Shown here in pieces: positions 54,483 through 57,148 of a DNA stretch of 64,000 nucleotides (positions are counted from its first letter, which is position 1; each line of letters begins with the position of its first letter). Source of the stretch: an archaeon GW2011_AR15 (GTDB lineage Archaea > Nanobdellota > Nanobdellia > Woesearchaeales > GW2011-AR15); contig CP010425.1 in NCBI GenBank assembly GCA_000830295.1, positions 384,001 through 448,000 on the forward strand, read 5' to 3'. Below the pieces are notes generated by a model. That model was not told where the DNA came from. It made no database searches and worked only from the letters and a program-made list of their open reading frames with translations. Both the position numbers and the translations under genes were made by a program.

Positions 54483-55385
54483 ATGTTCAAAATAAAGAAA
54501 ATGGAAGAAATTATCTCACAATTGCCCAAATCTAGAGTGAAAATAGTCTCAAAAAATAAAACTTCTCATGTTTTGGTTAATGGAAATTCACTAAAATTAA
54601 TGAAAAATATGCCGGAGGAAAGTATACACTTGATAATAACGGACCCTCCATATAACATTGGATTGGATTATGGAGATGAGTATAATGACAATAAGTCTAA
54701 AAAGGAATATTACCGGTGGTGTGAGGAATGGTTAACTGAATGCGCAAGAATTCTACATAAGGAGGGAAGTTTTTATCTGATCAGTTACCCTGAGATAAAT
54801 GCCAGATTACTACCATTTATTGAAGATAATTTAAAATTAAATTTTCAGAGATGGATAACTTGGCATTATCCAACCAATATTGGACACTCAAACAAGAATT
54901 ACACAAGAAGTCATAGGTCAATACTATTTTTTACAAAATCAAGAAAATATGTTTTTAACAGAGAAAAGGTGTTACAGGCCTATAAAAATCCTGAGGTTGG
55001 TAAAATCAAAGATAAAATCAGAGAGGGTTCTATAGGAAGGGCCGCATATGATTATCTTGAGAACAAAGATGTTCTAGAAATGCAGGAATTAGAGAAACTG
55101 CAGGAAAGATATTATGATATTCAAAAGATAAATCTCCTAAAAAATGTATCAAAAGATAGGGTTGGATCACTAAAAAAAGGAGACAAGGACCACCATCCAT
55201 GCCAATTACCATTACCACTATTGGAGAGGCTTGTTAAGGTTAGCAGCAAAGAAAAACAAATTTTATTTGACCCATTTGCTGGAACATTTACACTCGCAAA
55301 AATTGCTTCTGATTTAGAAAGAAATTCAATAGGGATAGAGCAAAACCGATATTTTGTGAAGCTGGGAAGAGAGAGATTAGAATGA
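54483..55385 (+). CDS. Beta-class N4/N6 DNA methyltransferase
   Basis: ITDPPYNIG, HPCQLP, DPFAGT, GIE. Confidence 0.92.
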   Translation: MFKIKKMEEIISQLPKSRVKIVSKNKTSHVLVNGNSLKLMKNMPEESIHLIITDPPYNIGLDYGDEYNDNKSKKEYYRWCEEWLTECARILHKEGSFYLISYPEINARLLPFIEDNLKLNFQRWITWHYPTNIGHSNKNYTRSHRSILFFTKSRKYVFNREKVLQAYKNPEVGKIKDKIREGSIGRAAYDYLENKDVLEMQELEKLQERYYDIQKINLLKNVSKDRVGSLKKGDKDHHPCQLPLPLLERLVKVSSKEKQILFDPFAGTFTLAKIASDLERNSIGIEQNRYFVKLGRERLE

Positions 55386-57148
55386 AACAAAAATATTCAG
55401 CTAATGATGAGTTAAAAACCTTTGCTCAAAATCTTGGATTTAAAATATTTTTATTTGATGATATTATTACACTTGGCCCAGAAATTAAACTTAGAGAACA
55501 AAGCAAAAGCTGTGAAATAGATGCTATTTTGATATATGAGAATTTAATTATTTTAGTTGGTATAACTAAAGGGGATTCTACAGGAACGAAAAAAGAAATA
55601 AACAAGTTTTTTGAAAGATTGGATAAAGTATATTATACAAAAGATATGAAGTTAAATTTAGAAATAAACACTTCAAATAAAGAGGCAATTAAAAAAAATA
55701 TAATTAAGGCGAATATTTTGTATGAAGAACTTGAAAAAAATATTAAAGAAATTGAAAAAAATTATGAGCCAAAATTAACTAAGCTTTTTTTCTGCCCGAG
55801 ACATAGTCTAGATGAATTAAAATTAAGAGATAGAAGCTCCTCTGGTGAATATATTATAGACAAAGATGTGAATGGGTATTTTATTGCGGTTGTAGACAGG
55901 TTAAACACAAAAGTTCTTTTTAATGATTTTATGTATTTTTTAAATATAAAAAAAGTGGATTTGGAAAAAAAATCACCATCCAAAACAAAGAAACCCGGAA
56001 AAACATCACCTTACAGTCATGTAAGCAGGATGGAACTTGAGAAAGATAAAAGTATAATGTATTCATTTGCGGTTAAAGTAGAAGAAATAGTAGATTTTAT
56101 CACTGTTCTAAGAGTATCACAAAAATATAATAAGAAAGGGTTCCAAAGGATGATAAAGAAGAAAAGATTAGATAAAATTAATGATGGGTACCTAAATGAA
56201 AATGAAACATTTCCAAATAATGTTATTTTGACTCTAAACCCAAAAATATACCTAAATGAAAATGAGTTCTATGATAGAAATGAAAATGAGTTTAGATTTC
56301 TCGATGAGTTTAATTCATTGTATGTGATTGATGGTCAGCATAGAATTTTTTCCTTTATTAAAGGGGAAAAATTGGATAGGCCTGTGTTAATTTCTTTAAT
56401 TTTCTTTAAAACTGGAAATGATGATGAGAAAGCACTCAGTATGGATAGAATGTTTTATGAAATAAATAAAAAACAAGAAAAAATTGATCCGAATTTAAGT
56501 TTCATTCTTAAGGCGAGGATTGATCAAGATTCCAATGAAAATTTCTGGTATGGTGTGTTTGATAAGTTAAAAGAAGATATATTGGGCAATTCTTATTCTT
56601 TTAAAGAAACAACAATTAGAGATAAAGAGAAAAAAAGTATAGTGAGCCTAATAACGTACGGTGGTGTATTCGCACTAAATGATACAAAAAAGAAAAAAGG
56701 AATAGAGCTGTTTGGTCTCAAAAAATTTTATTCAGAAGAAAAACAAAAGAATATAGAGTTTGTTATTTGTTTTTTAAACAATTATTTCAAAATTATAGCT
56801 AAAGTTCTGAATAAACAAAATATAGATGAAAAAAAATTAACTGTAAGAGATATAGGTGCACTTTTGAGATTAATTAAACATTTCTTATTGTCTAAAAAAG
56901 AAGAATTAAAACTTTTAGGAGAAGTTAAAAATATAATAAAAAATGAAGAAAATAAAGATCTTATCAACTATTTAGAAAAAATATTGAACTATATACCATT
57001 CAAGGAGGTAGTAATGTTAGAGTATGGGTCAAGTAAGTGGGCAGCAATAGAAGGATATATGCTTAAAAAAATTAATGATATTGATCAACGTTTTGGCAAT
57101 AAAATTTTGCTCTCAAAAAAAGGACTTGAAGTATATAACCAAATATAA
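55382..57148 (+). CDS. DGQHR-domain (DndB/ParB-like) protein with degenerate PD-(D/E)xK-like N-terminus
   Basis: FQRM, FPNNVIL, VIDGQHR, FYEINKKQ; N-terminal EIDAILIYENLIILVGITK; ATGA overlap with the MTase. Confidence 0.88.
   Translation: MKQKYSANDELKTFAQNLGFKIFLFDDIITLGPEIKLREQSKSCEIDAILIYENLIILVGITKGDSTGTKKEINKFFERLDKVYYTKDMKLNLEINTSNKEAIKKNIIKANILYEELEKNIKEIEKNYEPKLTKLFFCPRHSLDELKLRDRSSSGEYIIDKDVNGYFIAVVDRLNTKVLFNDFMYFLNIKKVDLEKKSPSKTKKPGKTSPYSHVSRMELEKDKSIMYSFAVKVEEIVDFITVLRVSQKYNKKGFQRMIKKKRLDKINDGYLNENETFPNNVILTLNPKIYLNENEFYDRNENEFRFLDEFNSLYVIDGQHRIFSFIKGEKLDRPVLISLIFFKTGNDDEKALSMDRMFYEINKKQEKIDPNLSFILKARIDQDSNENFWYGVFDKLKEDILGNSYSFKETTIRDKEKKSIVSLITYGGVFALNDTKKKKGIELFGLKKFYSEEKQKNIEFVICFLNNYFKIIAKVLNKQNIDEKKLTVRDIGALLRLIKHFLLSKKEELKLLGEVKNIIKNEENKDLINYLEKILNYIPFKEVVMLEYGSSKWAAIEGYMLKKINDIDQRFGNKILLSKKGLEVYNQI

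Follow-up and report, generated by a model that had tools for sequence, protein, structure and literature searches.

A methyltransferase-DGQHR gene pair in an AT-rich island of the archaeon GW2011_AR15: a candidate two-gene, methylation-keyed restriction-modification-like cassette

Domains of the ParB superfamily (COG1479/DUF262/DGQHR) frequently occur in fusions with HNH, PD-(D/E)xK or HEPN domains and are linked to DNA-modification systems (PMC3632139). The DGQHR domain is recognized by three hallmarks, a QR pair, the DGQHR pentapeptide and an FxxxN motif, and the DGQQR motif of GmrS was related to it by Machnicka et al. 2015 (PMC4619093 for both). DndI, in which a DUF262 (DGQQR) domain is joined to an HNH domain, is described as a single-protein restriction partner (Tang et al. 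2024, PMC11662687), and the host mark stimulates its ATPase and frees it from self DNA (PMC11662687). The PbeABCD module is reported to stop viral replication without DNA degradation (Xiong et al. 2019, PMC6459918), and the same paper speculates on a pairing of Pbe modules with methyltransferases, which are found near 155 of the 320 solitary pbeAC loci. A 2025 survey of the ParB-CTPase fold describes N6_N4-methyltransferase fusions as frequent in phages and a DndB-like protein that binds ATP/GTP (PMC12704722). Here we describe a gene pair of the archaeon GW2011_AR15, in which a DNA methyltransferase (P0001) is directly followed by a DGQHR protein (P0002). The window analysed is a stretch of 64,000 nucleotides (nt) at positions 384001-448000 of the host genome, which is one contig of 1,157,790 bases and 96.8% complete. 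We read the pair as a mobile two-gene restriction-modification (RM)-like system in which P0002, predicted to combine a ParB-fold nucleoside triphosphate (NTP) switch with a restriction-endonuclease-fold domain, would be an interference protein keyed to methylation, a reading to which we assign a probability of roughly 0.6.

The gene pair, its recurrence and its partners

A preliminary description, made from the letters of the stretch alone, had proposed two open reading frames (ORFs) joined by an ATGA overlap, a beta-class methyltransferase and a 588-amino-acid (aa) DGQHR protein, and all of these were confirmed in the sequence: the stop codon of P0001 and the start codon of P0002 share ATGA, with ATG at 55382 and TGA at 55383-55385 (Table 1). 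P0001 carries DPPY at residues 54-57 and cofactor motif I, DPFAGTF, at residues 263-269 (FAGT at 265-268), and belongs to the beta class because motif IV (DPPY) precedes motif I. It is placed best among Type II methyltransferases by PADLOC (MTase_II, 3.3e-56) and has the intact catalytic and cofactor motifs of a Type II-type enzyme. DPPYN, RWITWHYPTNIGHS, HPCQLP and DPFAGTF are unchanged in the alignment of P0001 orthologues (10/10), and the DPPY motif alone suggests N6-methyladenine as the product. The usual pattern of methyltransferase motif I is FxGxG, and the DPFAGTF of the P0001 lineage (10/10 sequences) is unusual, being without the second glycine.

P0002 passes the cut-off of the NCBIfam DGQHR model TIGR03187 (73.8 bits versus 58.85, residues 224-485). 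All three hallmarks of the domain are present, within the motifs FQRM (254-257), FPNN (277-280), IDGQHR (316-321) and FYEIN (358-362), and an EID (45-47)-x12-GITK (60-63) motif lies in the N-terminal part; these motifs had been listed beforehand and are found at the spacing then given. Q255, R256, D317-R321, F358 and N362 are invariant in 65/65 aligned relatives. No Pfam family matches P0002 at E ≤ 0.01, and PF14072 (DndB) does not match it even at E ≤ 10; this model does match 28 of the 65 family members at E ≤ 0.05. The NCBIfam models for DpdB (NF041060) and for the Dnd-associated DGQHR protein (DGQHR_dnd_1) score 40.4 bits (cut-off 300) and 45.1 bits (cut-off 450), respectively, and the sole PADLOC match is a weak one to DpdB (2.3e-10), in agreement with the earlier view that the pair belongs to no named system. 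A structure prediction for a complex of P0001 and P0002 scored 0.00 against a mark of 0.32 and, being run without controls, is evidence neither for nor against contact.

When 5.8 billion proteins were searched by word index, P0002 had 65 non-self relatives at E ≤ 3.4e-86, which are mostly about 590 aa long and 39-59% identical to it over the full length, across phyla; the next matches came only at E ≥ 6e-6. Searched exhaustively, 1.84 billion representatives yielded 21 matches at E ≤ 1e-30 and 378 at E ≤ 0.001; most of those with weaker scores are confined to the DGQHR core. The 65-member alignment used throughout was built after removal of 8 short fragments (P0037, P0039, P0052, P0057-P0059, P0067 and P0068) and addition of 7 more distant representatives. 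In it, 21 columns are invariant over all three domains of the protein, including D47, N54, Y166, W553 and E557, which argues that the whole three-part protein is under selection because these columns are spread across the full length.

The association with a methyltransferase is conserved. Scans of genome and metagenome contigs gave 16 orthologue-level loci (L001-L016), of which L009 (108 nt upstream only), L011 and L016 (contig end) could not be assessed; L017-L021, with partial or remote matches, were not part of the neighbourhood count. All 13 assessable loci have an N6_N4 methyltransferase upstream of the DGQHR gene and on its strand (tblastn), and in 10 of these it is an orthologue of P0001 (53-61% identity) that abuts or overlaps the DGQHR gene or is separated from it by 7 nt. 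The junction in seven of the ten orthologous pairs is a 4-nt overlap as in the window, the other three being a 7-nt gap (L012), no gap (L013) and a 17-nt overlap (L014). When all flanking ORFs were clustered, no other neighbour family recurred beyond pairs of close loci. The preliminary description had called for a neighbourhood analysis of recurring methyltransferase-DGQHR pairs, and the recurrence is borne out. The identity matrices of P0001 and P0002 correlate across nine complete pairs with orthologous methyltransferases (Mantel r = 0.91, a value reached by 2 of 5000 permutations; L008 and L010, with truncated genes, and L001, L003 and L015, with non-orthologous methyltransferases, were left out). 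Because related loci are not independent, this result is taken to mean that the two genes are inherited together, and no more. With 65 relatives and a conserved gene order, the association is far beyond chance.

Some features of individual loci are recorded alongside. The DGQHR loci L001 (4107-5072) and L015 (4326-5953) are not sisters, yet carry the same alternative, SPPY type of methyltransferase; L001 has no endonuclease of the BglII type found at L015 between its two genes, and upstream of them it encodes a PLD-type protein whose C-terminal domain is DpnI-like. In the deepest-branching loci (L012, L013 and L014) the DGQHR gene is directly followed by a gene for a nucleic-acid enzyme, of another kind at each locus (Table 1), and the DGQHR proteins of these loci keep E or D at the strand-3 position discussed below.

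The slot behind the methyltransferase is shared with proteins of another fold. Nine of 400 other genomes of the host's phylum carry a P0001-like methyltransferase, and the loci of the four closest (49-54% identity; L059-L062) were extended for a comparison of partners (Table 1). The divergent DGQHR protein of L059 keeps a D...E pair in its N-terminus. The GHKL proteins of L060 and L061 match the first ~175 positions of the NCBIfam BbrUII/HgiDII restriction-enzyme model (80-90 bits, cut-off 550), and hhalign detects no homology between them and P0002 (probability 0.2%). The five remaining methyltransferases (40-43% identity), on short loci, have as neighbours a DUF6996/DUF6997 protein, a transposase or unassigned ORFs. 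In one and the same slot, a single methyltransferase lineage is thus joined by NTPase partners of similar size that are of the ParB type in some loci and of the GHKL type in others. Because restriction-like GHKL proteins share this slot, P0002 is more readily understood as a restriction-side partner than as a methylation accessory, and this is the strongest single argument available. The proposal that the DGQHR protein occupies the restriction slot of the pair gains support from these BbrUII/HgiDII-like proteins in the same overlapping position and from a distant relative in a Dnd restriction-type cassette, described next. At L060 (2510-5509, + strand) and L061 (4673-7142, - strand) the GHKL gene is followed by a gene for a 289-aa protein with a weak PP_RS20740 match; a 143-aa ORF comes after it at L060, and the DGQHR gene of L059 is likewise followed by a 143-aa ORF (2807-3238, - strand). 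The cassettes at L059-L061 may comprise three or four genes.

That distant relative, a 575-aa protein of locus L048 (G442:C8:120000-135000), came from a scan of the phylum of G043, a genome recorded as Chitinophagaceae, and is the single such locus examined. Its alignment with the P0002 family takes in both the nuclease-like domain and the DGQHR core (hhalign 98.4%, columns 43-401, 20% identity in aligned columns). The locus encodes DndC (463 bits, cut-off 290) and DndD (254 bits, cut-off 246), and its cassette runs in the order 463-aa DGQHR protein, helicase, 728-aa SMC-like AAA_23 protein, 171-aa protein and 575-aa relative. The helicase matches TIGR04095, 'DNA phosphorothioation system restriction enzyme', with 398 bits, under the cut-off of 600. 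Judged from these assignments, the architecture of P0002 appears also on the restriction side of another modification system. The genes of L048 span 852-8430 (+) and 10596-14056 (-), with DndC and DndD facing the five-gene cassette, and an Mrr_cat/HARE-HTH protein adjoins the cassette.

The family is rare and scattered. Names in the source records include Aenigmatarchaeota, Pacearchaeota, Chitinophagaceae, Atribacteria and Heimdallarchaeaceae. A search of 40 relatives of the host, five of them from its own genus, turned up no P0002 orthologue, and one of the 40 has a DGQHR match, a remote one only; G043 is the sole orthologue carrier among 401 genomes of its phylum. The family's loci are neighboured by defence genes such as components of Type III and Type I systems and genes for a TIR protein and a PLD-DpnI-like enzyme. 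Rarity, scatter over both domains and placement in islands of foreign composition beside defence genes are together what mobile defence cassettes usually show, and the cassette is probably one of them. Among plasmids, only 16 carry DGQHR genes, distant ones that align with 25-29% of the P0002 query, phage records gave no P0002 match, and viral contigs gave no close relative, only partial matches at 21-34% identity.

Predicted architecture of P0002 and the surrounding island

An AlphaFold2 model of P0002 from the 65-row alignment (pLDDT 90.7, pTM 0.84) has three parts (Table 1). Modelled alone, the N-terminal domain is an alpha/beta structure (pLDDT 87.8) whose top Foldseek ranks, used here only as a lead to the fold class, are mostly PD-(D/E)xK nucleases (best E 9e-3, template modelling (TM) score ≤ 0.44); its neighbours include the R2 endonuclease domain, Cdn1, Card1, Can2, NucS/EndoMS, Nt.BspD6I, Cas4, AF1548, Bax1 and Hjc. 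A structural search of the Atlas with the same domain returned DGQHR proteins of ~580-614 aa first and then NERD/Mrr_cat clusters (TM 0.44-0.60), and weak Pfam matches within the family are to NERD (2/65 members) and Card1_endonuc (1/65). These models suggest a restriction-endonuclease-like fold. The best Foldseek neighbours of the DGQHR core are ParB N-domains (5k5d, E 7.3e-3, and 6sdk, both weak), one of them a CDP-bound ParB. Solved structures searched with a profile of the 65 members gave no relevant match at E ≤ 1, just a designed protein.

Within the N-terminal domain, D47 and N54 are invariant and D26, K134, D160 and K161 near-invariant among the 65 members. The family's own fixed polar residues are an F-D-D segment (D26, D27), N54, K134, D160-K161, Y166 and K191, and the F-D-D segment is missing from distant relatives of the same architecture (24-35% identity, 550-660 aa). 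Those relatives keep D on beta-2 (D47 here) and E on beta-3. In the 65 members the beta-3 position is G in 34, E in 14, S in 9, A in 5 and C, D and N in one each, so that an acid (E or D) stands there in 15/65 only, and no conserved lysine was found at +2 or +3 of this position. Active sites rebuilt from other positions are known in the PD-(D/E)xK superfamily. The structure prediction and the alignment both support the earlier proposal of an N-terminal nuclease-like segment lacking the canonical ExK, and the helical C-terminus proposed with it is seen in the model, whose final ~190 residues are helical. Neither structure nor sequence searches gave a lead for this C-terminal part, nor was there one to an HNH domain; in it R489, R496 and H500 are near-invariant and W553 and E557 invariant. 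The conserved R496-x3-H500 pair is unlike the canonical HEPN spacing, Rx4-6H. The C-terminus of DndB was called HEPN-like by Makarova et al. 2013 (PMC3632139).

Around the cassette is an island of ~7 kb (~52.6-59.7 kb) with a guanine plus cytosine (GC) content of 0.26-0.37 against 0.45-0.49 in the flanks; the GC profile confirms the AT-rich island of the preliminary description. The island is bordered by an archaeal-size ribosomal protein L3 gene/operon on one side and a SpoIIM-like gene on the other, and its further genes are, by Pfam, a methyltransferase fused to Mrr_cat, an MNT-type nucleotidyltransferase pair and a PIN gene. In the whole host genome (96.8% complete) no members of the DndC and DndD families were found and no TGT/DpdA (PF01702), for which the identical search was positive in 14/14 control genomes; the gene for P0002 is the one DGQHR gene of the genome. 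The earlier statement that no dnd/dpd genes are present holds for the window and, further, for the whole genome. Because DndC, DndD and TGT are absent from the host, methylation is the only modification linked to P0002. The host may do without archaeosine and queuosine-type tRNA modification, PF01702 not having been found in it.

The methyltransferase-Mrr_cat gene is divergent from the cassette across a short AT-rich spacer. Its ORF begins with a GTG that is probably too early, Met21 looking like the true start, and a 113-aa ORF without family (52820-53161) lies directly downstream of it. About 20 nt before the P0001 ATG at 54483 the spacer contains a TATA-like stretch, tttatattaaa; assuming that the methyltransferase-Mrr gene starts at the internal Met21, the spacer would hold putative promoters. 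The rest of the island consists of toxin-antitoxin-type genes (the nucleotidyltransferase and PIN pairs), and no tRNA gene was found in the 64-kb window.

Table 1. Coordinates and partners of the features discussed (window positions unless a locus is named)
Feature	Locus	Coordinates or position	Strand	Length	Basis
Methyltransferase P0001, N6_N4 DNA methyltransferase, beta-class	window	54483-55385	+	300 aa	PF01555, E 4.8e-49
DGQHR protein P0002	window	55382-57148	+	588 aa	TIGR03187
P0002 N-terminal domain, residues 1-205 (predicted PD-(D/E)xK / NERD / Mrr-like fold)	window	55382-55996	+		fold prediction
P0002 DGQHR (ParB/Srx-fold) region, residues 224-485 (predicted NTP-binding switch)	window	56051-56836	+		TIGR03187
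P0002 C-terminal helical extension, residues 486-588	window	56837-57145	+		AlphaFold2 secondary structure
AT-rich island holding the cassette	window	52600-59700	.		GC profile, Pfam
Second N6_N4 methyltransferase (DPPF) with C-terminal Mrr_cat	window	53189-54454	-		PF01555, 3.5e-52; Mrr_cat 25.3 bits versus cut-off 21
Divergent intergenic region, P0001 versus opposite methyltransferase-Mrr gene	window	54395-54482	.		AT-rich, read from DNA
Nucleotidyltransferase (Polbeta/NTP_transf_2, MarR/TrmB-like N-terminus) overlapping 141-aa partner	window	57221-58140	-		weak PADLOC PDC-M05A/B
PIN-domain gene overlapping 78-aa ORF	window	58576-59224	-		
Gene downstream of DGQHR gene	L012	7821-8258			GIY-YIG, weak, below cut-off
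Gene downstream of DGQHR gene	L013	7758-8489			staphylococcal-nuclease-like
Gene downstream of DGQHR gene	L014	3516-4481			HhH-GPD, weak, below cut-off
Partner of P0001-like methyltransferase: divergent DGQHR protein	L059	downstream, 8-nt overlap		572 aa	TIGR03187, 96.6 bits; hhalign 99% to P0002 family
Partner of P0001-like methyltransferase: GHKL ATPase protein	L060	downstream, 8-nt overlap		568 aa	PF13589
Partner of P0001-like methyltransferase: GHKL ATPase protein	L061	downstream, 8-nt overlap		541 aa	PF13589
Partner of P0001-like methyltransferase: GHKL protein	L062	convergent		737 aa	

A methylation-keyed reading and its rivals

In the RM-like reading, P0001 would mark host DNA by methylation at its recognition sites, and P0002, translationally coupled to it, would act as the interference component. 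The DGQHR domain is predicted to bind and hydrolyse NTP as a switch. By analogy with DndI and SspE, which read phosphorothioate, and with GmrSD, which reads modified cytosine, we propose that P0002 scans DNA, that the host methyl mark would drive its NTP-dependent release and that unmarked incoming DNA would be attacked or blocked; methylation sensing, NTPase activity and interference are what we infer from these analogues. Because the canonical catalytic acid is absent from P0002, interference could be either DNA cleavage or a non-degradative block. A version taken to its end makes P0002 an NTP-gated ParB-like clamp and no nuclease, in which the degenerate nuclease fold would only read unmethylated sites and replication or transcription would be blocked without cutting. 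Such a methylation-keyed, two-gene 'restriction without cleavage' has as its sole precedent in outcome the four-gene, phosphorothioate-keyed PbeABCD, and we regard it as unlikely.

Several points weigh against the RM-like reading. The P0001-type methyltransferase is not dedicated to a DGQHR partner, because its family is the larger one (487 proteins at E ≤ 1e-40 versus 65 for the DGQHR family). The upstream enzymes of 3 of the 13 assessable loci (L001, L003 and L015) are SPPY methyltransferases with 24-27% identity to P0001, those of L001 and L015 being 54% identical to each other and that of L003 a third kind; since the DGQHR protein of L001 falls within the group whose methyltransferases are orthologous (61-65% identity to its members), the methyltransferase was replaced at least once within the clade. 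At L015 a BglII-like endonuclease (PF09195, 8.2e-27) is encoded between the methyltransferase and the DGQHR gene, and because it adjoins, this methyltransferase already has a conventional restriction partner. The pairing as first described stands in its recurrence, but these loci are counter-examples to it. The closest named DGQHR families act on the modification side, DndB being described as a repressor of the dnd operon (PMC4507180, PMC6459918) and DpdB as a ParB-like ATPase driving modified-base insertion (PMC12839542). No structural match of the whole model or of the N-terminal domain reached a Foldseek E ≤ 0.001, and the beta-3 acid position is G60 in P0002, whose catalytic D...(D/E)xK is not canonical. 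Part of this would suit a protein on the modification side, either a DndB-like NTP-dependent operon regulator or a DpdB-like ATPase aiding the modifying enzyme, with no effector of its own: P0002 touches no named family other than DpdB and the Dnd-associated DGQHR protein, DndB represses an operon, DpdB drives insertion of a modified base, ParB-fold/N6_N4-methyltransferase fusions are frequent in phages (PMC12704722), translational coupling suits a stoichiometric partner, the canonical nuclease acid is missing and the L015 methyltransferase has its own endonuclease. We nevertheless consider this reading, the main rival, somewhat unlikely. Orthologous methyltransferases carry restriction-like GHKL proteins in the same overlapping slot, and P0001-type enzymes exist without a DGQHR partner, which means that the enzyme does not need P0002. 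P0002 has three conserved domains, with a predicted nuclease fold outside the DndB/DpdB models (the TIGR03187 match starts at 224), and stays far under the cut-offs of DpdB (40 versus 300) and DGQHR_dnd_1 (45 versus 450), and its relative of the same architecture at L048 sits in a restriction-type cassette beside a separate, shorter DGQHR protein.

The replaced methyltransferases, and the position of the L015 DGQHR gene behind a complete BglII-like pair, could also mean that P0002 is an independent defence gene, an abortive-infection-type or type IV-like effector merely lodging beside methyltransferases in defence islands. The loci are rich in unrelated defence genes (Type III/I parts, TIR, PLD-DpnI-like, toxin-antitoxin), and ParB-like-nuclease fusions have been proposed as cell-death or abortive-infection modules on modification systems (PMC3632139). 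Chance lodging fails to account for same-strand upstream methyltransferases in 13/13 loci, mostly with start-stop overlaps and correlated divergence, and a type IV attack on methylated DNA conflicts with a co-transcribed methyltransferase unless the specificities differ; an independent gene is therefore quite improbable. The lost acid could finally mark a decayed remnant, in which the methyltransferase may still work and P0002, having lost nuclease function (G60), is now without a role. The acid is missing from P0002 and 50/65 aligned members, and the cassette lies in a recently acquired island, but the reading frame is intact over 588 codons, full-length identity is 39-59% across phyla and 21 columns are invariant. 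Because the invariant columns lie in all three domains, including in those members that have G, S or A at this position, purifying selection acts on the whole protein, and decay appears very improbable.

Significance and comparison with described systems

Fusions of ParB-like NTPases with nucleases, attached to DNA-modification systems, are a known class. For the methyltransferase-DGQHR pair, and for the P0002 family, its methyltransferase partnership and its degenerate nuclease motif, no description was found in the literature outside supplementary tables and REBASE. If the RM-like reading is true, a ParB/Srx-fold NTPase switch would serve as the restriction partner of ordinary methylation, a role so far seen only with phosphorothioate (DndI, SspE) and hypermodified phage DNA (GmrSD), and a compact two-gene family would join the catalogue of defence systems, for which PADLOC currently gives a weak DpdB match only. 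A single methyltransferase slot that takes a ParB-type or a GHKL-type partner is a natural experiment on the modularity of RM systems. With the nuclease acid lost from most members, how interference would work is a real question, testable with two genes, and the cassette is relevant to the small-genome archaea and bacteria that carry it, lineages with few named defence systems.

A Type III-like Mod-Res reading was set aside. In Type III RM systems a Res subunit with a superfamily 2 (SF2) helicase is encoded downstream of a beta-class Mod, whereas P0002 has no ResIII or helicase match in Pfam and P0001 is placed best among Type II enzymes. The phage ParB-methyltransferase fusions resemble the pair in joining a ParB-fold NTP-binding module to a PF01555 methyltransferase (PMC12704722), but they are single, prophage-enriched proteins with a canonical ParB, and the available part of their description reports no nuclease-fold domain (PMC12704722); the window has two separate genes and a ParB-like domain of the DGQHR branch. 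BbrUII/HgiDII-type pairs, represented by L060 and L061, share with the cassette an orthologous methyltransferase (52-54%), the gene order, the overlapping junction and a partner of 541-568 aa with an NTPase, and differ in the NTPase fold, which is GHKL, not ParB.

With DndB and DpdB, P0002 shares the DGQHR ParB-like domain and its QR, DGQHR and FxxxN motifs; it differs from them in an extra N-terminal domain of 220 residues with a predicted nuclease fold, has no match to the DndB model, falls under the cut-off of DpdB and resides in a genome without DndC, DndD or TGT/DpdA, and the roles of DndB and DpdB lie in regulation or modification, not restriction. Compared with PbeABCD, whose four genes lie beside dndCDEA, the cassette of the window has two genes, and its island contains no helicase, SMC-like ATPase, small subunits or dnd genes. 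The preliminary description had counted PbeA and PbeC among the proteins with DGQHR domains, which is not upheld: PbeA is described by helicase motifs and PbeC as SMC-like, and the word 'DGQHR' does not occur in the paper (PMC6459918). The likeness to Pbe-like Dnd cassettes lies instead in L048, whose 575-aa protein shares the nuclease-like N-terminal domain and the DGQHR core with P0002. GmrSD, SspE and DndI are defined by DUF262 with DGQQR and a C-terminal DUF1524 HNH domain; P0002 has no DUF262 or DUF1524 match in Pfam, and its motif is DGQHR, not DGQQR. DndI and SspE differ further in that their partner is a sulphur-insertion module and not a methyltransferase, and in that their nuclease is a C-terminal DUF1524 HNH domain, whereas the nuclease fold of P0002 is predicted to be N-terminal and of PD-(D/E)xK type, without the canonical acid. 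In their general plan they are like the protein described here, with a ParB/Srx-fold NTPase bearing DGQ(Q/H)R and a nuclease-fold domain in one protein beside a DNA-modification module, and the proposed logic would be the same, the self mark modulating the NTPase and unmarked DNA being targeted.

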